From a phage, in assembly GCA_018865545.1 (NCBI GenBank), contig GCA_018865545.1_3633.1: a DNA stretch of 64,000 nt. One strand, written 5' to 3'. Below the pieces are notes generated by a model. That model was given only the letters and a program-made list of their open reading frames with translations, was not told where the DNA came from and did no database searches. A program made the translations under genes and the position numbers. Shown here one piece after another: positions 3,320 to 31,945 of the stretch; the stretch's first letter is position 1, and each line of letters starts with the position of its first letter.

Positions 3320-4174
3320 ATGGCAAAGATACCTGACGAAAACATTTCTTCTTATTTTGATGACTACCTGCATCACACAAAATCTATGAAAATAAATTTT
3401 AATGTATTCCGTGAAGCCATTATAAGGGAAGTTGAAAGTCGCCACCATGAACCAAACCCTTTAATAGAACTCATAAAACATGCTGTGCTTATGTGTTTTG
3501 ATACTCTGGATAGGAAATGTTACTGGAAATATTATGTTGAAGCTGACGAGCGTGCTTACATGGCAAGCGTAAACTTAACGCATGAGTTTTCAAGCTATGA
3601 TATTACTTGTGGGCAAATAACAATTTCTTTCCAAGGCTTTAATTATGGAATGTGTTTAGCAGGATCGTTGTCTGCACGAACACAAAAATTCCTGTCTGTT
3701 TTGTCCCAATTGGGGCATTGGGATGGTAATATGTTTTCCATAAAGGCTTCCTATGTCAGAACAAACCCAGATATTCTCCACATCAGGGAGATTAACTCCA
3801 GTTTTGGATCCTTTTCTCTGGCGGGTTGTTATGGAATGTTTTACCAAACAAAGATGTATGATTATGCAGGTCATGCTGCAATTAAGATAGCCAACACGCC
3901 AAACGTAGAGAATAAGAAATCGCACTACTACTTGGTGTGTAATACCCAAGAAGTAATGTACCATCGTGTTGTAGAAAAGGAGCTAAAAGAGCTTATCTTG
4001 GGGGAGATCCCTACCCAAGAGGAACGCTCAATGATAGAAATGGCTGGGTACAAAGGAGAATTTTTTCTTGATTCTCTTGTAGATTTTGATAATATTGGTA
4101 TAAAACCCTTTAACATGCAAGAGGCATATGAATGGCACAATCGAAGTCTGTCCCCAGTAACATGCAAGATTTAA
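3320..4174 (+). CDS. hypothetical protein
   Basis: ORF from ATG 3320 (track start 3314 is TTG); no motif recognised. Confidence 0.45.
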   Translation: MAKIPDENISSYFDDYLHHTKSMKINFNVFREAIIREVESRHHEPNPLIELIKHAVLMCFDTLDRKCYWKYYVEADERAYMASVNLTHEFSSYDITCGQITISFQGFNYGMCLAGSLSARTQKFLSVLSQLGHWDGNMFSIKASYVRTNPDILHIREINSSFGSFSLAGCYGMFYQTKMYDYAGHAAIKIANTPNVENKKSHYYLVCNTQEVMYHRVVEKELKELILGEIPTQEERSMIEMAGYKGEFFLDSLVDFDNIGIKPFNMQEAYEWHNRSLSPVTCKI

Positions 4175-16096: not shown

Positions 16097-16403
16097 GTGG
16101 TTTTTCCCACCACACCAAAAAGCAGAAAAAGTTTTTGATTTTACTGAGTATAGGGGCAATGGCCATGATATTACACTGCGTCTCAACCAATCTGGGGAGG
16201 TTGCAGAAGCTGTGATTATCTTATCCGATGATGTAGAAAAACCGGAAGATGGTGATCTTGTTATCGTAGATCTTGATAATATTTTTGGTGATGGAAGCGG
16301 AGTGACGACATATGTGATTAGTCACATAGAGTATGTTTCTTCTGAGATCTCAAGAGCAAGTTTAGTCTTGAAGAAGGAGGATATCAATGCAGACAAAAGC
16401 TGA
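16077..16403 (+). CDS. hypothetical protein
   Basis: 108-aa ORF. Confidence 0.4.
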   Translation: MLKKLFKWFFPPHQKAEKVFDFTEYRGNGHDITLRLNQSGEVAEAVIILSDDVEKPEDGDLVIVDLDNIFGDGSGVTTYVISHIEYVSSEISRASLVLKKEDINADKS

Positions 16404-16860
16404 TATCTTAATCGGAGATATTGAGAAACTGGCAAAGAAAGCCACCAGAGGGCACTGGTGGATAGATAGCCATGGACATGCAATGGTAGCATTCCAAAAT
16501 GATAATAAAATAGAAACTGTTTTCATCACAGATCCTAAAATGGGTCCGGCAAAGAGACATGAGGGAACCGGGAATTTATCTCACTGGCAAAATGACTACG
16601 ATGCCAGTTACATTGCCACCGCAAGCCCAGATAATGTTCTGTACATTATTAATGAGCTAAGAGGAAAACGAGATGCTTATGATAAAATTAAAGAGCATCT
16701 CGACAACTTAGGCGGCTATGGCGCAGAATTGAAAAAGCGTGTAGAAGCCGAACTATATGCTAATGGTTGTCAGAGTTCTCTTGTTCACATATTAGCTTTT
16801 GTGGATGCCCTGTTAAAAGAAAATATTGAGTTAAAACAAGAGTTGGGGGAGTATGAATAG
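16387..16860 (+). CDS. hypothetical protein (shares SPxxVLxxIxEL motif with paralogues at 28092-28659)
   Basis: ASPDNVLYIINELRG resembles ATPQLVLALIEEIED and ITPHIVLALLDEIKK of the later ORFs. Confidence 0.4.
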   Translation: MQTKADILIGDIEKLAKKATRGHWWIDSHGHAMVAFQNDNKIETVFITDPKMGPAKRHEGTGNLSHWQNDYDASYIATASPDNVLYIINELRGKRDAYDKIKEHLDNLGGYGAELKKRVEAELYANGCQSSLVHILAFVDALLKENIELKQELGEYE

Positions 16861-23882: not shown

Positions 23883-24492
23883 TGAAGTAGAGGAAATTTG
23901 GAAGGATATCGTAGGGTATCCTGATTATCAAGTAAGTAATTATGGAAATGTAAGATCTTTTAAATCAGGAATGTGGAAATACTTAAAAACTAAAAGTGAA
24001 AATTTATCTCCACAATGCTATCCGAGCGTGTGCTTGTACAAAAGGGGTAAAGATTCAGGGAAAAGTTTTTCAGTCCATAGACTTGTAGCGGAGGCTTTTA
24101 AAGAGCCTCCTTCTCCAGAATTGCAGAAAGAATGTAGAAAAACTGTGCTAGGAGTTCCAATTATAAACCACATAGATGGTGACAGACATAATAATAGGGT
24201 TGAAAATCTTGAGTGGTGTACCTATAGCCATAACAATACAGTGGCTTATGGTATGGGGAGAATCCAAAAATTTGGTGATGATTATCATTTATCTGTTCTT
24301 ACAAAGGAGAAAGTTTTAGAGATTGTACGGCTTATTGATTGTGGGATAACACACAAAGCTATTGCGGAACTATTCGGAGTTTCCAGAAATACAATATCTT
24401 CTTTAAATAATGGATACTCATGGTCACATGTCACAGGAAGACCTAAGAAAGTCCAGAAAAGAAGATCAAAAACAGACCCTATATCAGAGTAA
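23854..24492 (+). CDS. freestanding HNH homing endonuclease (NUMOD4-like N-terminus, HNH, C-terminal HTH)
   Basis: EEIWKDIVGYPDYQVSNYGNVRS; HIDGDRHNNRVENLEW; HTH-like ITHKAIAELFGVSRNTIS; GTG start overlaps the polymerase 3' end. Confidence 0.65.
   Translation: MDTHGQIPTDEVEEIWKDIVGYPDYQVSNYGNVRSFKSGMWKYLKTKSENLSPQCYPSVCLYKRGKDSGKSFSVHRLVAEAFKEPPSPELQKECRKTVLGVPIINHIDGDRHNNRVENLEWCTYSHNNTVAYGMGRIQKFGDDYHLSVLTKEKVLEIVRLIDCGITHKAIAELFGVSRNTISSLNNGYSWSHVTGRPKKVQKRRSKTDPISE
24410..24426 (+). repeat. direct repeat, copy 2
   Basis: ATGGATACTCATGGTCA. Confidence 0.4.
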
Positions 24493-25360: not shown

Positions 25361-25851
25361 ATTTTGATATTACAAAGCTACATGTCTTACTACAAAGTTT
25401 TTACCTTTCTTACGATGCTTGGGTAAAAAGAGGAGCACCAGACTCTGATATTTTCTCTCGTGACTGCGGTTTGTGTGCTAATTTATATGATTGGTGTAAT
25501 GTGAATCATTTGTCCGGCTACATGGATGACCTACTGGACATGCTGCATGATGATTTCGAAAAGGCGGGGCTAGATAAAAGATTGCCTTTCAACCAGACAA
25601 GCCCCTATAGTAGAGAAATGTTTAAAAATACTTGCCATAAGAACAAAGAACGCTTGCAATGGGTACAAGACAATATAGATTTGTTCAAGAAGGAGCAAGG
25701 AGCTTTAAGAAATAAGTATGAAACTTTGAGCGACGCTGCTAAAATGGTTGTGTATACATGGGCAAGTGCGGACAGTAAACAATTTAAAGCAAGTATGGAT
25801 AAAAGCGTCCCTGTATTACGAGATATTCTGTTCAATGAGGGGGAATCATGA
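25357..25851 (+). CDS. hypothetical protein
   Basis: 164-aa ORF. Confidence 0.45.
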   Translation: MNFDITKLHVLLQSFYLSYDAWVKRGAPDSDIFSRDCGLCANLYDWCNVNHLSGYMDDLLDMLHDDFEKAGLDKRLPFNQTSPYSREMFKNTCHKNKERLQWVQDNIDLFKKEQGALRNKYETLSDAAKMVVYTWASADSKQFKASMDKSVPVLRDILFNEGES

Positions 25852-26162
25852 AAACCTTTACAAAAGAGCAGCTACTTAAGCATGTTCGCTCTAATGTTGA
25901 CCATCTGAAAGACCTCCAACAGCGTGTTGGTGAGGCTGGAGATGAGTATAAGAAGATTTTTGACATGGTATCTCTTGATTTGGAGATTGCTAAGATCGCA
26001 TTAAATGCATTAGAAGCAAAACCGATTGGTGCTTTCCATATCGCAGAGCAGCAAGTCGATGGTACAAGCGATTATATCAAAGATGGGGAATGGCCCATTG
26101 ATAACGGAACAATTGAAGTGTACACTTCACCACTTGCTTTTACAAAGAGTAGCCGATATTAG
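25848..26162 (+). CDS. hypothetical protein
   Basis: 104-aa ORF. Confidence 0.4.
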   Translation: MKTFTKEQLLKHVRSNVDHLKDLQQRVGEAGDEYKKIFDMVSLDLEIAKIALNALEAKPIGAFHIAEQQVDGTSDYIKDGEWPIDNGTIEVYTSPLAFTKSSRY

Positions 26163-26216
26163 ATAATTTACCAAAAATGGGTTTCTTTGGCATATTTTTC
26201 ACAAATGGTTCTTATT

Positions 26217-27086
26217 ATGAAAGATAAAGTTTTTGTTCCGCCTATAAAATCGCAAGGGATTAAGACTAAACTGGTTCCGTGGATAAAGAGAATTGTTCCT
26301 AAAAACTTTAATGGGGTATGGGTCGAGCCGTTTATGGGGACTGGAGTTGTTGCCTTTAACGTTGCTCCTAAAGATGCATTATTATGTGATACAAACCCTC
26401 ATTTGATTTCTTTTTATAATGCATTGAAAAATAAAGATATAACAGGGGATCTTGTTAAGGATTTTTTATATCGTGAAGGTGAAAAACTCTTATTAAGTAA
26501 TGGTGAGTATTATTATGAAGTCAGGGAAAGGTTTAATAATTACAAGGAACCTTTAGATTTTTTATTCTTAAATAGGTCTTGTTTTAATGGTATGATTAGG
26601 TTTAATAGTAAAGGAGGGTTTAATGTTCCTTTTTGTAAAAAACCAAACAGATTTGCACAAGCATATATTACCAAGATTTCGAATCAAGTTGATAGGATTT
26701 CTGAAATAATATCAAAAGGGAACTATACATTCTTGTGTCAGTCATTTGAAAAAACTATTGGCATGGTAAATAGGGATGATGTTGTTTATTGTGATCCTCC
26801 ATATATTGGTAGGCATGTTGATTATTTTAATTCATGGGGAGAGCGTGACGAGCGTTTATTATTTGAAACGTTATCATCTTTGAATGCTACATTTATAACG
26901 TCTACGTGGCATCATAATGATTATAGGGAAAATAAGTACGTTCGTGATTTATGGTCATCTTTTAGAATATTGACGAAAGAACATTTTTATCATGTTGGAG
27001 CGTCCGAAAAAAACAGATCCCCGATGGTAGAGGCGCTAATTACAAATATCAATTACTTACCCCAGGCTGAAGCTGCGAAATGTTGA
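26217..27086 (+). CDS. Dam-like DNA N6-adenine methyltransferase
   Basis: motif [11 protein letters not shown], catalytic DPPY; local GC about 26% against about 40% for the window. Confidence 0.75.
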
Positions 27087-27104
27087 GATTAAGGTGAAAT
27101 AGTT

Positions 27105-27476
27105 ATGACCACTATTACCAAAGAACGTCTGCTGACAATCAAGCAATGGCGCGAAACATACGGACTAGGTAGCAACGTTGTACTGCCAGCAGAAGAAGCG
27201 CAAGAACTGGCTCGAATTGCTCTGGCATCGCTGGAAACAGAGCCTGTAGCATGGATGTGTGAGGACGCAGATGGTCGTGAGTATAACGCTCGCAATGAAT
27301 TTTCTGGTGGGAGGAAAGGAACCCCACTCTACACCTCTCCTAACGTGCAGGTAGTGCCGGAAGAAATGTATTGGCAGGATGCGCCAGTTGAAGGCAGCAG
27401 CAAAGCGGCTGCATACGCTACAGGCTGGAATGCCTGCCGCGCCGCTATGCTCAAAAAGAAGGGGATGAATCAATGA
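27105..27476 (+). CDS. hypothetical protein (high-GC island)
   Basis: 123-aa ORF; local GC about 50%. Confidence 0.45.
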   Translation: MTTITKERLLTIKQWRETYGLGSNVVLPAEEAQELARIALASLETEPVAWMCEDADGREYNARNEFSGGRKGTPLYTSPNVQVVPEEMYWQDAPVEGSSKAAAYATGWNACRAAMLKKKGMNQ

Positions 27477-27540
27477 CTTGGCCTGAAGCATTCACAACGG
27501 TAGGGGTTGTAATGGCTGTAGCCTTTGCAGTGTACTCAGT

Positions 27541-27756
27541 TTGTCGATGGGGGTGATGATGATAAAAGAACAACTAGGGAATGATACTCAAAAATCACGT
27601 TTTCAGCAGTGGTTGGAACAACAACATGACCAGATTGATGTGGATTGTGGTTGTGTTTCTATTGAAACATTCATGTATTGGTTACAAGTGGCGTATGAGG
27701 CAGGAGGAGATTTAAATGAGCAATGGTTATCAACCTGTCATCTCGGAAATGACTAA
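27541..27756 (+). CDS. hypothetical protein
   Basis: 71-aa ORF in high-GC island. Confidence 0.35.
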   Translation: MSMGVMMIKEQLGNDTQKSRFQQWLEQQHDQIDVDCGCVSIETFMYWLQVAYEAGGDLNEQWLSTCHLGND

Positions 27757-28102
27757 TGTTGCGCTTCCACCTTCGTCACCAAGCCTTAAAGCAGCAACCC
27801 AACAACCAGTTGCTTGGCGCTATCGTTATGTAAAACAGGGAAATCTGTGGACTGGTGACTGGAAATATGTCCCAACAAAAGAAGATTGTAACGACAGACC
27901 AAACTACGAAATTCAGGCGTTATACACCACACCTGTAACTTTAGAAGGTTTGTCTAAAGCAGTGCGCTTCTATGAACAGGTTAAGCGTGAAAATCCACCA
28001 GTCGAAACAGGGGCATGGAAAGATGCTATTGACTGGATACTCAAAGAGGCATATGATGTGGTAAATAAAACCACACAGGACTTATCGAGTTATGAAAATT
28101 GA
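27716..28102 (+). CDS. hypothetical protein
   Basis: 128-aa ORF in high-GC island. Confidence 0.4.
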   Translation: MSNGYQPVISEMTNVALPPSSPSLKAATQQPVAWRYRYVKQGNLWTGDWKYVPTKEDCNDRPNYEIQALYTTPVTLEGLSKAVRFYEQVKRENPPVETGAWKDAIDWILKEAYDVVNKTTQDLSSYEN

Positions 28103-28421
28103 TTACCAAAAATTACGTAAGCTAGCGGAGATAGCAAGAGATGGTGGTACTTATCAAGAAATAACTGACTACCGTACTATGGCCACACCTCAGCTTGTGC
28201 TGGCATTAATTGAAGAAATTGAAGATCAAGGCAAACGTATTGCAGATCTGGAGGCACGGATAGTAGATCTTCCTCAACGGTTGCAACCTGGTGCTGATGG
28301 TTATGATGATTGGTATATGCACAGCGCAGATGATGGTGAATATTTCAAAGCCGATGAGGTTATCGCGGCAATCTACGCCGCTGGCATTCGCCTCAAGGAG
28401 GCAACCAGTGAGCGGAATTAA
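28092..28421 (+). CDS. coiled-coil protein, tandem paralogue 1 (possibly Ead/Ea22-like)
   Basis: DYQKLRKLAEIARDGG and ATPQLVLALIEEIED shared with the next ORF. Confidence 0.45.
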   Translation: MKIDYQKLRKLAEIARDGGTYQEITDYRTMATPQLVLALIEEIEDQGKRIADLEARIVDLPQRLQPGADGYDDWYMHSADDGEYFKADEVIAAIYAAGIRLKEATSERN

Positions 28422-28659
28422 TTACCAAGCACTGCGTGAGGCGGCGCAGAACGCGAAAGATTTAGGTGGGATTAAGAATTACAAGCGAGGCGAGCAAGCT
28501 GTTGCCGAATTTGAGTCCTTGATAACACCACACATTGTGCTGGCGCTACTGGATGAAATTAAGAAGTTAGAAGACACAAATATTGACGCCATGTGTCAAA
28601 TTGCAGAACTCAAAACTAATGTCAAGTTATTGAAGGAAGGGGTAACTAGCCATGACTGA
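28408..28659 (+). CDS. coiled-coil protein, tandem paralogue 2
   Basis: start GTG 28408 after AAGGAGG; NYQALREAAQNAKDLGG and ITPHIVLALLDEIKK. Confidence 0.45.
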   Translation: MSGINYQALREAAQNAKDLGGIKNYKRGEQAVAEFESLITPHIVLALLDEIKKLEDTNIDAMCQIAELKTNVKLLKEGVTSHD

Positions 28660-29107
28660 GAAATCGGTGCATATTGATGAAATCAAACGTCTTGGTGCTA
28701 AATGTGCAACTCTTTTAGAAGAGAAATACCATGATAAAAAGAAAATCTCCGAACTTGCGACTCGTTGTGCAGAGCTAGTCGCTGAAAATATAGTGCTGCA
28801 CAGGGCAATTAAAGCTGTCCACAATGTTGCTGATAACTCCAGTGGGGTTGCCGATTGGCATTTGAATGGCGATATCTCTGCATGGGAAGAGGTTCTTCCT
28901 GAAATTTATGATATCAAAACCCCAGCTACCGATGCTTTCCTGGCTGAAGTACGGGCGCAGGGCGTGGAGATGCTGGCAAAAAATCATCAGAGTATCGTCA
29001 ATGCACTTAAGGGAGATTCTTTATTTTCTGATGGTGAAAACCGACATGCAGCTATTGTTTCCGCAGCCGTATATTTCGCCGCAGAGCTTCGCAAAGGGGG
29101 TGAGTAA
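28652..29107 (+). CDS. hypothetical protein (weaker relative of the paralogue pair)
   Basis: 151-aa helical ORF. Confidence 0.4.
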   Translation: MTEKSVHIDEIKRLGAKCATLLEEKYHDKKKISELATRCAELVAENIVLHRAIKAVHNVADNSSGVADWHLNGDISAWEEVLPEIYDIKTPATDAFLAEVRAQGVEMLAKNHQSIVNALKGDSLFSDGENRHAAIVSAAVYFAAELRKGGE

Positions 29108-29289
29108 TGCGTGTGGCATGTATCGGCCTGTTACCGTATCCGATTCGATTTTGGGCATCTGCGCCAATTGCAAATCCGAATATCCTGATGGCTGACAACA
29201 TCATCTCGGCACAGAAGCGCCATACCGGTATTGCAGCGGCACGACGAGCAGCCAAGAAACGCAGAAAGTCAAAACATAAGAGGAAATAA
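29107..29289 (+). CDS. hypothetical protein with basic C-terminus
   Basis: C-terminal KKRRKSKHKRK. Confidence 0.35.
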   Translation: MRVACIGLLPYPIRFWASAPIANPNILMADNIISAQKRHTGIAAARRAAKKRRKSKHKRK

Positions 29290-29453
29290 TGAAAGAAATA
29301 TTATTTGCATTCATATTTGCACTTGTAAGTGTTCCTGTGGCGATGGTTATGGCTGGTTTACCAGTTCATAAAGGGCTGCTTTTTGCGGGGCATATAGGAG
29401 CTTTTGTCATAGGTTTGCTCACTTGTCTACAGGTGGTTGCTAAAGATGTGTAA
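29289..29453 (+). CDS. small hydrophobic (membrane) protein
   Basis: 54-aa ORF absent from the track; two hydrophobic stretches. Confidence 0.3.
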   Translation: MKEILFAFIFALVSVPVAMVMAGLPVHKGLLFAGHIGAFVIGLLTCLQVVAKDV

Positions 29454-30102
29454 AAATCGTTTTTACATGATGTGCTTGCGTGAAACTGTAGGTAATAACG
29501 CCTCATTCCATTGCCATAACGGTAATGGTTACAGTTCTGATATCGATCGCGCTCATGTTTACACGCTGGAAGAAGCCCAAAAAGCCTGGAATTGTGGTCG
29601 AGATATCGATCAACCTGTTTGTGCCGATAGTGTGGATGCAATGGCTGTGTGGCACGTTGATTGCCAGTACATCCCTACAGAAAGCCTGATTGAGTCAGAT
29701 TGCACTGCGTATGTGGCCTACAAAAAAGGTAGCTGGAACGGCAACGATGTTTACTGGCTTCAACACGGTGGATTGCCAACAGATGACTTCAGTAAAGCAA
29801 CCATCTTTAGCGTCACCAACAGAAACGAACCAGGAATAGTTTGGTTGCCATTTTCCATTGCTGATTCAGCAAAGCGCAGGACGTTCAATATCAATAACTT
29901 TAACCGCAGAACAATGGCTCAGGGCGCAGGTTTGATCATGCCTGACTGGTTGAAAAAGCAGAACAGAAGAAAGAAGTCACGAACCGGGAAGGTGCGTTGG
30001 AATTGTCCGTATTGCGGAAAAATAGTCTGGCAGTACAGTCCCTATGATTTTGAAGGATGTCGTGATCACAACTGTGAAGGGTGGGTATATGGAAGATTTT
30101 AA
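29446..30102 (+). CDS. cysteine-rich hypothetical protein
   Basis: start ATG 29446; C-terminal CPYCG...CRDHNC. Confidence 0.4.
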   Translation: MCKNRFYMMCLRETVGNNASFHCHNGNGYSSDIDRAHVYTLEEAQKAWNCGRDIDQPVCADSVDAMAVWHVDCQYIPTESLIESDCTAYVAYKKGSWNGNDVYWLQHGGLPTDDFSKATIFSVTNRNEPGIVWLPFSIADSAKRRTFNINNFNRRTMAQGAGLIMPDWLKKQNRRKKSRTGKVRWNCPYCGKIVWQYSPYDFEGCRDHNCEGWVYGRF

Positions 30103-30298
30103 AATTAAACAAGGTTGTTTATACAAGTCTAAATTATCTTGGGATCCAGAGCAGAAATACCTTGTTACTGCCGTTGGTTTAAATCATGTCTTGATTACTG
30201 ACTACCCTTTGATTAAAATTAACGAGGGTTATTTAGAGCACTGTTTAACATACAAACAGTTCAAAGAAGACTTTATCTATGTTGGGGAGGTAGAATAA
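30089..30298 (+). CDS. hypothetical protein
   Basis: start ATG 30089. Confidence 0.35.
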   Translation: MEDFKIKQGCLYKSKLSWDPEQKYLVTAVGLNHVLITDYPLIKINEGYLEHCLTYKQFKEDFIYVGEVE

Positions 30299-30828
30299 TG
30301 GAACTTTCTAAATTCGCAGACTTGGTTAACCATATAGCCTCTTTACGTGGGAAACAATATCAGGATCCAGACACTAAAGTAACAATTGTTATTCATTCCC
30401 CAAGTACTGTTGGAGCAACACCTTCGGTTGATGTTCAATCTATACATGCAGGATTCGATTGGGATAGTGGACAAATAATGATTTTCCCATCTCAACCACT
30501 CACTGTGCTCTCAAAAGAGCAAGTAGAGGCCATTTGTGAAAGTGTTCATAAAGGACAATCTTGGCACGCTTTTCAAGAATACAAAAGACATAAGGAAGAA
30601 ATTGAAAAAGCACAGGCTCGTATTAAAGAGCTTGAAGAAGATCTTGGAAATATAAAACTTGTTGCTTCGGGTCTGCTCTCTGAATATCTCATGAATAAAG
30701 GTACTGATCTGGAATTTATCGCCTGTGTGACTCCATCGAAAAACACAATAGGTAATGGTGGTGTGTGGGATATGTGGCGAAAACTGGATAAGATGATTGG
30801 AGATAAAGATGAAAAATCGCAAAGCTAA
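30298..30828 (+). CDS. hypothetical protein
   Basis: 176-aa ORF. Confidence 0.45.
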   Translation: MELSKFADLVNHIASLRGKQYQDPDTKVTIVIHSPSTVGATPSVDVQSIHAGFDWDSGQIMIFPSQPLTVLSKEQVEAICESVHKGQSWHAFQEYKRHKEEIEKAQARIKELEEDLGNIKLVASGLLSEYLMNKGTDLEFIACVTPSKNTIGNGGVWDMWRKLDKMIGDKDEKSQS

Positions 30829-31018
30829 AATCCTTCTCCTGCCAAGGAAAAGGGAATCCCAAGTATTAAAAGTAAGCAATAGACGTGTTGTTTTATTTAA
30901 GTATTATGGCGCAATGGTTGCCGGAGAGAGAAAAAAGTTAAGCATAAAACAAAAGATTAAATACAGGAAACTCGAAAAAATATTTAATAATGCAATGGCA
31001 AAATTGAGGAATAACTAG
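30809..31018 (+). CDS. hypothetical basic protein
   Basis: start ATG 30809; Lys/Arg-rich. Confidence 0.35.
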   Translation: MKNRKAKILLLPRKRESQVLKVSNRRVVLFKYYGAMVAGERKKLSIKQKIKYRKLEKIFNNAMAKLRNN

Positions 31019-31312
31019 ATGACCAAAGAAATGTGGGAACATCACGAGGATTTGTTTGGTGAAAACCAAGTTATTGTTAAAGGTAGTCTTGAGAAAGAGG
31101 GAAACGGAATGGAGAGCTACTCCCCAATCTGTACCGCTGAAAACGGGAATCTAGCTTTGGCTATTGCAATGTGTCCCTTGATTGTGGATGCTCTCGAACA
31201 AGCCCTACCATATGTAAAAGCGGCAGCAAAAACTGATGGACATGCCAACGGAACTTATCAGCTTGCAGCTAACATTGTTTCTGACTGGAAGAGATATATG
31301 AATAAAGGATAG
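31019..31312 (+). CDS. hypothetical protein
   Basis: 97-aa ORF. Confidence 0.4.
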   Translation: MTKEMWEHHEDLFGENQVIVKGSLEKEGNGMESYSPICTAENGNLALAIAMCPLIVDALEQALPYVKAAAKTDGHANGTYQLAANIVSDWKRYMNKG

Positions 31313-31316
31313 AAAC

Positions 31317-31673
31317 ATGATGTCTTTTTTAGAGTGGGTCCAGGTGCATAATAACTGGTTCCCTGCTTTATCGTTTTATGTGTTGTGTTCTATTTGGGCT
31401 TTCATTTTATCGTATAAAGGGACATGGAAACACGTTGTTGTCTCTTTTGTTATGTTCGTTATTCTTGGGGCAACAACTATTAACTACTTTCTCCTTTACG
31501 AGGATGGCTACAAAGAGTACACAAAAAACTGGGAATCGTGCACAACACAAAAAGCATTGGATGAAATGTATGTCTTCGATAATGTAAAAGAGAAATGTAT
31601 GAAGCCTGTTGTTGGCTTTGTACCAACAGAGAGCGTAGATATACTGGAAATTAAAAATGGAGATTGGACATGA
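31317..31673 (+). CDS. membrane protein
   Basis: two hydrophobic segments in the N-terminal half. Confidence 0.4.
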   Translation: MMSFLEWVQVHNNWFPALSFYVLCSIWAFILSYKGTWKHVVVSFVMFVILGATTINYFLLYEDGYKEYTKNWESCTTQKALDEMYVFDNVKEKCMKPVVGFVPTESVDILEIKNGDWT

Positions 31674-31945
31674 CAAACAAAAAGTTAACAGGTGCACAAC
31701 TTGTTGAGAATCTCAAAGAGAAACTTCGCAACAACCCCTCTTTGGAAGAGGAATTGCTACTTAAATATTTCGAAGATAATGTGGATATGCTCCCTGTGGA
31801 ATATGGTTGTCCAGAGGGTTTCCACAAAGCATTTCGACAAGTGGATGTGTGTAAGAAAGGCTATCAAGATATGGTTATTTGGAGTATCCTTTCAGGAGGG
31901 GATTCGGAAAGGGTTTGGGAAGTTATAGAAGAGTTTTTCTCTTGA
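31664..31945 (+). CDS. hypothetical protein
   Basis: 93-aa ORF. Confidence 0.4.
   Translation: MDMTNKKLTGAQLVENLKEKLRNNPSLEEELLLKYFEDNVDMLPVEYGCPEGFHKAFRQVDVCKKGYQDMVIWSILSGGDSERVWEVIEEFFS

Follow-up and report, generated by a model that had tools for sequence, protein, structure and literature searches.

A likely prophage-derived mosaic of early accessory genes, including a tandem Ea22-family array, in an Avunavirus relative of Escherichia phage Av-05

Introduction

How does a phage that appears committed to lytic growth come to carry, among its early genes, a compact run of genes otherwise associated with temperate phages? The question is raised by a 64 kb stretch of phage contig GCA_018865545.1_3633.1 (+ strand shown), the whole of which is hereafter called the window, where positions 27105-30084 form an island of raised GC content made up of nine co-directional small open reading frames (ORFs) of temperate-phage type, as delimited by GC content and megablast. 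A first-pass annotation made from the sequence alone had placed a high-GC island at 27100-30100 and proposed that a block picked up from enterobacterial lambdoid prophages had then been duplicated. From the composition, homology and comparative analyses described below, we consider it likely that the island is the youngest layer of a hypervariable early region, and that it is a prophage-derived mosaic including an array of Ea22-family genes that was inherited from the donors and from which related phages lost 340 bp.

The DNA around the island is ~97% identical to that of Escherichia phage Av-05 (KM190144; classified in its record as Avunavirus, subfamily Vequintavirinae), with identities of 91-97% between the window and Av-05, and ~93-94% identical to four further phage records (24-2-1, 18-1-2, 19-1-2 and TH18), for which the host or source is given as marmot respiratory tract or Escherichia sp. 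Judged by these identities, the window phage is an Avunavirus (Vequintavirinae) relative of Av-05, which has been described as strongly lytic, with 40.0% GC and a broad host range (PMC4463512). The Avunavirus sample available for comparison comprised three independent lineages.

A high-GC island with sharp homology boundaries

The GC content of positions 27105-30084 is 0.453, compared with 0.398 in the rest of the window, and the 2980-bp segment starting at 27101 has the highest GC content of all segments of that length in the 64 kb. Relative to non-overlapping segments, whose maximum is 0.434, the island has a z-score of 4.7. The coordinates given in the first-pass annotation were thus accurate, and its figure of about 50% was too high: values of 0.50-0.53 are reached only at 27100-27600, and only two ORFs, 27105-27476 (0.516) and 29107-29289 (0.492), come close to 50%. 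The sharp rise in GC that had been remarked on downstream of a dam gene is also real, but it looks larger than it is because that gene, a methyltransferase gene at 26187-27086, is itself an AT-rich outlier (GC 0.33). Donor loci have GC contents of 0.44-0.50, so that the composition of the island, which lies between these values and the phage background, is that of its sources. Related islands are similar in this respect (0.449 in Av-05 and 0.454 in 24-2-1). The island therefore departs in GC content from the genome that carries it and resembles the donors.

Megablast searches with the region identified 298 phage records and yielded matches in 1985 of 5426 complete E. coli genomes. The matching elements include Stx-converting and other lambdoid prophages, the P22-like phage 611R6, and P1/P7-like plasmid prophages. 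Homology to prophages begins exactly at the ATG at 27105 and stops at 30084, leaving 5 nt to the start codon (ATG at 30089) of the next native low-GC gene, and the ribosome-binding region immediately upstream of 27105 is Avunavirus-specific and common to the window, Av-05 and 24-2-1. In a local BLAST comparison with six fetched temperate loci, 1615 of the 2980 island bases (54%) matched at an identity of at least 85%. The island thus combines high nucleotide identity to unrelated genomes with sharp boundaries at 27105 and 30084.

The matches are distributed in segments of differing similarity. Against the six temperate loci, nucleotide identity is 90-93% at 27105-27250 (to prophage genes), 94-97% at 27344-27451, 75-78% at 27460-27704, ~93% at 28373-28623, 90-100% at 28911-28975, 86-88% at 29077-29275 (to P1-like and Stx2c prophage DNA) and 95-96% at 29455-30084. 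A further segment, 27836-28050, is 83-85% identical by BLAST to E. coli chromosomal prophages.

The island as a mosaic

Apart from the Avunavirus relatives, no record spans more than about a third of the island. Homologous genes occur in two donor settings, one between the recombination genes and xis/int in the early-left “ea” region, as in 611R6, and one in the nin region between the gene for replication protein P and RusA. Gene order provides a further indication of piecemeal assembly. In prophages the order runs from an hkaG-like gene through Ea22 genes and a gene resembling ORF 29107-29289 to a DUF551-domain gene, the first 140 nt of which equal window positions 27105-27250; in the window the 5' module of the DUF551-domain gene comes first and the hkaG-like gene last. 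Furthermore, the 611R6 DUF551 protein combines the N-terminal module of ORF 27105-27476 with the C-terminal module of a neighbouring ORF, 25848-26162, and the switch between the two falls at a conserved ...LEAKP... motif. Given that each donor accounts for about a third of the island at most and that prophages have their modules in another order, the sequence comparisons indicate that the island is a mosaic and not a single block. An origin in prophages, as originally proposed, is supported by nucleotide identities of 85-97%; the donors extend beyond lambdoid prophages to P1-like plasmid prophages, and the idea of one block did not hold.

Repeated exchange at the locus within Avunavirus

Av-05 and 24-2-1 carry islands in the same place and with the same edges as the window, with differing content. 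The first-pass annotation had suggested comparing related genomes for presence or absence of the block; every available relative proved to be occupied at this locus, each with its own selection of modules. The islands of Av-05, 24-2-1, 18-1-2, 19-1-2 and TH18 share position and boundaries with that of the window, and the genes starting at 27541, 27716 and 29289, as well as the hkaG-like gene, have orthologues there. Phages of the Av-05/24-2-1 type differ from the window in lacking the methyltransferase gene, in having a single hybrid Ea22 gene in the place of the window's two, and in having a longer EaA-like gene.

In comparisons of the window with Av-05, most island genes have a synonymous divergence (dS) of 0.10-0.17, and flanking genes one of 0.07-0.20. 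Since the two ranges are similar, much of the island predates the split between the window phage and Av-05. Two genes are outliers, 28652-29107 (0.56) and 29289-29453 (0.29), and the first of these looks like an allelic replacement. A wholesale replacement, in which the island would be more diverged from Av-05 than the flanks are, was considered and dropped, as dS is mostly flank-like.

The 630-bp hkaG-like module provides evidence of a separate event. In this module, eight derived sites are common to the window and Av-05, and most of the private changes are found in these two alleles. At 98.4% identity to temperate alleles, as against 95-96% to those of the window and Av-05, the 24-2-1 allele groups with the temperate ones, which are 97-98% identical to one another. 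In 24-2-1 (L002 5330-6195) the hkaG-like gene also continues, prophage-style, into a 74-aa Ea22 gene (MTIDYQALRE...), and the window genes of 30085-31642 are missing. These features are a sign of a more recent, independent exchange of the 24-2-1 allele. Given that this allele and its junction are of prophage type and that the window and Av-05 share derived sites, at least two separate exchanges with the temperate pool have taken place at the locus.

A tandem array of Ea22-family genes

The centre of the island is occupied by three Ea22-related genes: gene 1 (28092-28421, 109 aa), gene 2 (28408-28659, 83 aa, GTG start) and gene 3 (28652-29107, 151 aa). Genes 1 and 2 overlap by 14 nt, are 30% identical over 80 aa (E = 4e-8) and both contain the motifs YQxLRxxA and TPxxVLALxxEI, which bears out the earlier recognition of at least two tandem paralogues, to which gene 3 adds a third member. 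With a gathering cut-off of 27 bits for Pfam PF13935 (Ead_Ea22), gene 2 qualifies at 34.1 bits and gene 1 falls below at 19.4 bits; homologues of gene 1, however, are named ead/Ea22-like and carry PF13935, so that the earlier Ead/Ea22-like assignment stands for both genes. Gene 3 is linked to the family by phrog_368 (E = 1.5e-20, a profile also matched by gene 2), by a local hidden Markov model (HMM) of Ea22-like proteins (E = 1e-8) and by hhalign, with a probability of 89.6% on its C-terminal domain; it also matches phrog_492 (E = 4.8e-26) and has no match in Pfam.

At the DNA level, the motif shared by genes 1 and 2 is present as one copy at 28195-28220, encoding VLAL..EEI, and a second at 28535-28560, 340 bp downstream. 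In a three-way alignment the genes are identical over a 10-nt core only, TTGTGCTGGC, followed by a partly conserved GA(A/T)GAAATT. Across the junction of genes 1 and 2 (28373-28557) there is 93.5% identity to the junction of an adjacent ead/Ea22-like gene pair in the P1-like plasmid pCUVET19-970.2, and over its first 50 aa gene 2 hardly differs from the second gene of that pair. Arrays of two or three tandem ead/Ea22-like genes are usual among the prophage matches. In alignments of many family members, the same motif acts as a joint between interchangeable N- and C-terminal modules.

Both Av-05 and 24-2-1 have, in place of genes 1 and 2, a single 75-aa hybrid gene that corresponds to gene 1 on the 5' side of the shared core and to gene 2 on its 3' side; positions 3909-3938 of Av-05 match both motif copies of the window. 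With 340 bp from one core to the other and a shift of one frame between the genes, an in-frame hybrid results when those 340 bp are deleted. The junction already exists in a P1-like plasmid, and the tandem arrangement would therefore have come from the donor pool. On the aligned sequences, the most economical interpretation is that the two-gene state stems from that pool, with the three Ea22 genes inherited as a tandem array and not duplicated in place, and that Av-05 and 24-2-1 lost 340 bp through recombination between the motif copies.

Alternative explanations

The proposal with which the analysis began, that one lambdoid-prophage block was acquired and an Ea22-like gene then duplicated in tandem within the phage, accounts for two true homologues that are adjacent, overlap by 14 nt and have two motifs in common, and the single gene of Av-05 and 24-2-1 could be read as the state before duplication. 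We nevertheless regard it as improbable. Copies that retain 30% amino acid identity and a 10-nt core are far more diverged than the window is from Av-05, and each is much closer to its prophage relatives than to the other, so that their DNA identity does not exceed that to outside sequences as would be expected of a recent duplication. The gene in Av-05 and 24-2-1 is a clean hybrid of genes 1 and 2, which is the form of a deletion product and not of a precursor, and the tandem junction, like tandem arrays in general, is found in temperate elements. Inheritance of the array from the donors is therefore preferred, and the duplication step of the earlier proposal is abandoned.

The remaining alternatives concern the direction and the reality of the transfer. 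Genes native to Avunavirus-like virulent phages might have been donated to temperate phages, given that transfer is possible either way (PMC8136500) and that the phage holds older paralogues of native GC content at 16387-16860, 25848-26162 and 30298-30828. This reverse direction also seems improbable to us, as the GC content of the island matches temperate loci and not the phage, homologues occur in ~2000 E. coli genomes and many genera as against a handful of Avunavirus genomes, and the 24-2-1 hkaG-like allele falls among the tightly similar temperate alleles while private changes lie mostly in the window and Av-05. An abrupt change in composition coupled with high identity to host-species DNA could also reflect host prophage DNA wrongly joined to the phage genome during assembly. 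We give such an artefact hardly any credence: related islands with the same boundaries are present in phages sequenced independently from Mexico (Av-05) and China (24-2-1 and relatives), identity to prophages is 75-97% and not ~100%, the module order matches no prophage, and the ORFs are intact and under purifying selection. Finally, the region could be ancient native DNA whose GC content was raised by the amino acid content of coiled coils, with no transfer at all. Parts of the island have no close prophage match, and GC at third codon positions (GC3) is not raised in 27716-28102, 28092-28421 and 28652-29107 (0.34-0.36), as this explanation would have it; amino acid composition cannot account, however, for nucleotide identities of 85-97% over 54% of the island, nor for homology boundaries that coincide with the GC boundaries, and we consider it very improbable.

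Several observations weigh against a prophage-derived mosaic in a virulent phage, or limit what can be said of it. An empty site was found in none of the three independent Avunavirus lineages, each of which carries some form of island. In the six sampled temperate loci, ~39% of the island is without a match at an identity of at least 75%, and 28051-28372 and 28624-28910 gained nothing from E. coli genomes at megablast sensitivity. The direction of transfer rests on composition and gene prevalence; amelioration was considered as proof of direction and dropped, as the excess of GC-to-AT changes in the virulent hkaG-like alleles is weak (13:6, p = 0.17). We infer the virulence of the window phage from its taxonomy and from the Av-05 paper. 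Lastly, no island protein matches NCBIfam, PADLOC, whose models were matched only by the neighbouring methyltransferase, or a solved structure, and searches of Protein Data Bank (PDB) sequences with 28652-29107, 29437-30102 and an Ea22 profile gave chance hits. A scan of IMG/VR with one flanking protein returned Av-05 only.

Modular architecture of the Ea22-family proteins

The Ea22 protein of lambda is expressed early and forms tetramers; a short segment at its N terminus is followed by a long coiled coil, and its C-terminal domain is variable (PMC10834534). The three window genes are modular variants of this plan, comprising N-domain, coil and C-domain (gene 1), N-domain and coil (gene 2), and coil and C-domain (gene 3). 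All parts are present in gene 1, with a single ~23-residue helix in the position of the coil, and no single gene reproduces the lambda layout. Coiled coils, which the first-pass annotation had predicted for genes 1 and 2, are supported by a crude heptad count in gene 2 (residues 49-81) and gene 3 (residues ~10-56), but not in gene 1 with its one short helix. As lambda and Stx-phage Ea22 differ in the C-terminal domain (PMC10834534), the type of this domain separates Ea22 subtypes and does not decide family membership.

Gene 1 consists of a short N-terminal domain, the TPxxVLALxxEI motif, the helix, and a C-terminal module (residues ~60-100) with the pattern LPQRLQPGADGYDDWY(V/M)HSADDGEY(L/F)K..(D/E)V, of which the window version is LPQRLQPGADGYDDWY.HSADDGEY. 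Among 29 homologues whose N-terminal and coiled-coil parts are very different, this module hardly varies; it is present in Ea22-like proteins of Salmonella, Citrobacter, Klebsiella and E. coli, and on this pattern of conservation looks like an effector module. Homologues of gene 1 are found in the same genera, the closest in Salmonella, Citrobacter and Klebsiella; the best protein relatives are from Citrobacter (57% identity for the best full-length match) and Salmonella, and the gene has no close DNA match in E. coli. The Citrobacter and Salmonella relatives fit the broad host range reported for Av-05. An AlphaFold2 model of the gene 1 product (pLDDT 81) comprises three helices and a small alpha/beta C-terminal module, for which Foldseek found no match in the PDB (best E = 0.38), a collection that should include the lambda Ea22 C-terminal domain. 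Sequence searches of the PDB with gene 3, or with an Ea22 profile that included genes 1 and 2, likewise retrieved no Ea22 entry.

Gene 2 ends after its coiled coil, and gene 3 lacks the N-terminal domain and ends in a C-terminal domain (TPATDAFLAEVRAQGVEM...FAAELRKGG) of P1-like/lambdoid Ea22 type. The ATG of gene 3 overlaps the stop codon of gene 2 in ATGACTGA (28652-28659), one frame apart, an arrangement that suggests translational coupling; a fused product made by frameshifting seems unlikely. We also considered that genes 2 and 3 might be a single Ea22 gene split by a frameshift. This was rejected, as each has its own coiled coil and their matches overlap on the PHROG profile (1-126 and 76-237), and it is further contradicted by the two-gene layout being kept in Av-05 and 24-2-1.

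A more distant member of the Ead/Ea22 family lies outside the island at 16387-16860 (+ strand), with a native GC content of 0.40 and a coiled coil supported by the heptad count. Its Pfam score (20.2 bits) is below the cut-off, and hhalign against an 11-sequence Ea22 profile matched only a 20-residue motif, with a probability of 3%. It matches phrog_5585 (E = 5e-43), as does gene 1 (E = 2.7e-6), and homologues of both genes at E = 1e-16 to 1e-46 mostly carry PF13935. Since most of its homologues carry that domain, we include the ORF in the family, in agreement with the relationship noticed in the first-pass annotation.

Other genes of the island

The first ORF (27105-27476, 123 aa) is built from 5' modules of prophage DUF551 genes (phrog_60, 660, 5117 and 3323) and is chimeric, combining two prophage modules. 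Its Av-05 counterpart is a 220-aa gene (L001 2528-3190), relative to which the window gene is shorter in frame by ~97 codons, with both ends conserved and ~70 nt replacing the middle; the 24-2-1 orthologue of the Av-05 gene is annotated as EaA protein. DUF551 itself (Pfam PF04448, 68 residues), which scores 74.9 bits in the 611R6 protein, was not found in 27105-27476, 27716-28102 or 25848-26162, and DUF551 proteins share only N-terminal modules with the window genes. The ORF at 27716-28102 (128 aa, phrog_660) is a distant paralogue of 27105-27476 (blastp E = 0.024); its homologues sit in the nin region of lambdoid prophages, and its ratio of nonsynonymous to synonymous divergence (dN/dS) relative to Av-05 is 0.19. 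Between these two genes, 27541-27756 encodes a 71-aa member of a function-unknown family (phrog_924), with an orthologue at Av-05 L001 3273-3470, 75-78% nucleotide identity to prophage loci and a dN/dS of 0.21 relative to Av-05.

Downstream of the Ea22 array, 29107-29289 encodes a basic protein of 60 aa (phrog_13831, E = 2.4e-31), and 29289-29453 a hydrophobic one of 54 aa, which judging from its translation is probably a small membrane protein; it is 87% identical at the amino acid level to its Av-05 orthologue (dN/dS 0.25) and has no match in Pfam or PHROG. The hkaG-like gene (29446-30102, 218 aa, phrog_2457) is the best conserved module of the island. It belongs to a family of ~215-aa proteins that occurs in Acinetobacter as well as in many Enterobacterales; the family lacks a Pfam domain and has four invariant cysteines in a C-terminal motif. 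A confident structure model was obtained for the protein, and no structural relative was found.

Selection, expression and proposed function

Island genes have dN/dS values of 0.19-0.37 relative to Av-05, similar to those of the flanks, which points to purifying selection. All nine ORFs are encoded on the + strand and either overlap or are separated by short gaps, and promoter-like and terminator-like sites were no more numerous than in shuffled sequence; the tight packing and the lack of excess sites fit read-through with neighbouring genes, and the nine ORFs may be read together with the surrounding + strand early genes.

It is likely that the early-gene region repeatedly took up small accessory genes from temperate enterobacterial phages. 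Their sources would be the 'ea'/exo-xis region, in lambdoid, P22-like and P1-like elements alike, and, in lambdoid prophages, the nin region. The lytic phage would have recombined with resident prophage DNA during infection, with joints at gene boundaries and at short intragenic motifs, namely TTGTGCTGGC...GAAATT in the Ea22-family genes and ...IAL..LEAKP... in the DUF551 N-module family. Older homologues already in the phage (25848-26162, 30298-30828 and 16387-16860) may have supplied homology. By analogy with lambda Ea22, the Ea22-like proteins might oligomerise through their coiled coils and turn their variable terminal domains towards host targets early in infection.

The resemblance to the lambda Ea22, or exo-xis ('ea'), region is close in some respects: the family (PF13935) is the same, the modular organisation into N-terminal part, coiled coil and variable C-terminal domain recurs, spread over the window genes, and the genes are set among small co-directional early genes, as in the exo-xis region of lambda and Stx phages. 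Deletion of ea22 in lambda favours lytic growth (PMC10834534, PMC7093339), and a pro-lysogenic effect of Ea22 has been reported for lambda and Stx phages (PMC7093339). The window genome, unlike lambda, is that of a presumably virulent myovirus with no lysogeny decision to bias; its Ea22-family proteins are 83-151 aa in length, compared with 182 aa for lambda Ea22, with domains split over three genes, and nothing in the PDB was detected as a structural match for the C-terminal domain of gene 1. Individual modules have their closest DNA relatives in P22-like phages (611R6, and hkaG of HK620/IME10) and P1/P7 (the upf87-89 and pmgU region), with identities of 95-96% for the hkaG-like gene, 90-93% for the 5' end of the DUF551 gene and 93.5% for the Ea22 junction. 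The window differs from these regions in the order of its modules, in genes that are truncated or recombined, and in the missing DUF551 domain.

For a phage unable to lysogenise, the pay-off of these genes might be host manipulation or counter-defence in place of a lysogeny decision. It is possible, if rather doubtful at present, that Ea22-family, DUF551-N-module and hkaG-like genes are lifestyle-independent early factors for host manipulation or counter-defence and not lysogeny accessories. This idea draws on the capture of such genes from prophages at least twice at one locus by a virulent lineage, and on the retention of up to five Ea22-related genes of different ages, of which the comparable ones are under purifying selection. 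If true, lambda Ea22 would act on the host, with its 'pro-lysogenic' phenotype as a side effect, and the hkaG-like protein, with its confident model, lack of relatives and four invariant cysteines, would be a new effector fold. Ea22-family genes have so far been studied only as lysogeny modifiers of lambda and Stx phages; here they appear to be kept under selection in a phage that does not lysogenise, which offers a simple setting for a search for their host target.

Recent transfers between temperate phages and virulent ones have been inferred for ~36% of virulent phages, more often for those with large genomes (Moura de Sousa et al. 2021, PMC8136500). The window follows that pattern, as a large virulent phage having a few very similar function-unknown genes in common with unrelated temperate phages, and differs from the survey in that a direction can be argued from composition, joints can be placed within a few bases and at least two exchanges can be distinguished. 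We found no published description of the island: the announcement of Av-05 (PMC4463512) is silent on it, a search of the Septuagintavirus paper for relevant terms showed no mention of it, and a search for literature on Ea22-like genes in lytic phages yielded nothing useful. Phage mosaicism and the sharing of genes between temperate phages and virulent ones are already well documented, and the island reveals no new mechanism and no new kind of element; as a case in which a lytic “therapy-type” coliphage takes genes from the prophages of its hosts, it is clear and well resolved, to within a few bases, but not out of the ordinary.

Neighbouring genes

The left edge of the island is formed by the methyltransferase gene at 26187-27086 (+ strand), which lies outside it and encodes a D12-class N6-adenine DNA methyltransferase (Pfam PF02086, E = 5.5e-63). 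The gene has a GC3 of 0.27 and a GC content that drops to 0.27 locally, and it matches a PADLOC Type II methyltransferase model with 581 bits. In Av-05 and 24-2-1 the gene is absent, and its site holds ~350 bp with two tiny ORFs. The segment 26145-27073 constitutes a separate methyltransferase cassette whose composition is opposite to that of the island. The best homologue among 50,697 phage records, from an uncultured faecal phage, has 48% amino acid identity. The cassette is probably a recent capture from some low-GC source, and plausibly serves in protection against restriction.

Upstream of the cassette, the DUF551-module gene at 25848-26162 (+ strand) has native GC content, and its PHROG matches are the four found for 27105-27476. 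Over bases 26013-26123 its nucleotide identity to DUF551 genes of prophages is 81-85%, and its 3' half corresponds to the second module of the DUF551-domain gene of prophages; by these matches it is an older paralogue of 27105-27476. To the right of the island, the gene at 30298-30828 (+ strand) is of Ea22 type, with a native GC content of 0.386 and a coiled-coil segment (heptad pattern at residues 93-126 by the crude count). Over ~230 nt (30379-30609) its nucleotide identity is ~70% to genes that the matching phage records label Ea22 or pmgU. It has nothing in Pfam, and hhalign against the Ea22 profile was not significant, so that its link to the family is phrog_368 (E = 2e-14); it is probably an older acquisition. 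From the similarities of these flanking genes, the whole neighbourhood, beyond its high-GC part, can be said to share ancestry with temperate-phage accessory regions.

The flanks of the Av-05 island contain two extra small ORFs without a window counterpart (L001 1577-1840 and 5734-6144), the sites of which on the window lie at 25835/25840 and at 30279/30298. They are further small-scale insertion/deletion variation in the same early region. Farther into the left flank, window positions 24000-24275 correspond to the end of a gene annotated as HNH endonuclease in Av-05; homing-type endonucleases beside hypervariable regions can promote local recombination. Few flank genes have a family assignment, one being the small ORF at 31664-31945, which matches Pfam DUF7238 at 38.3 bits, above the cut-off.

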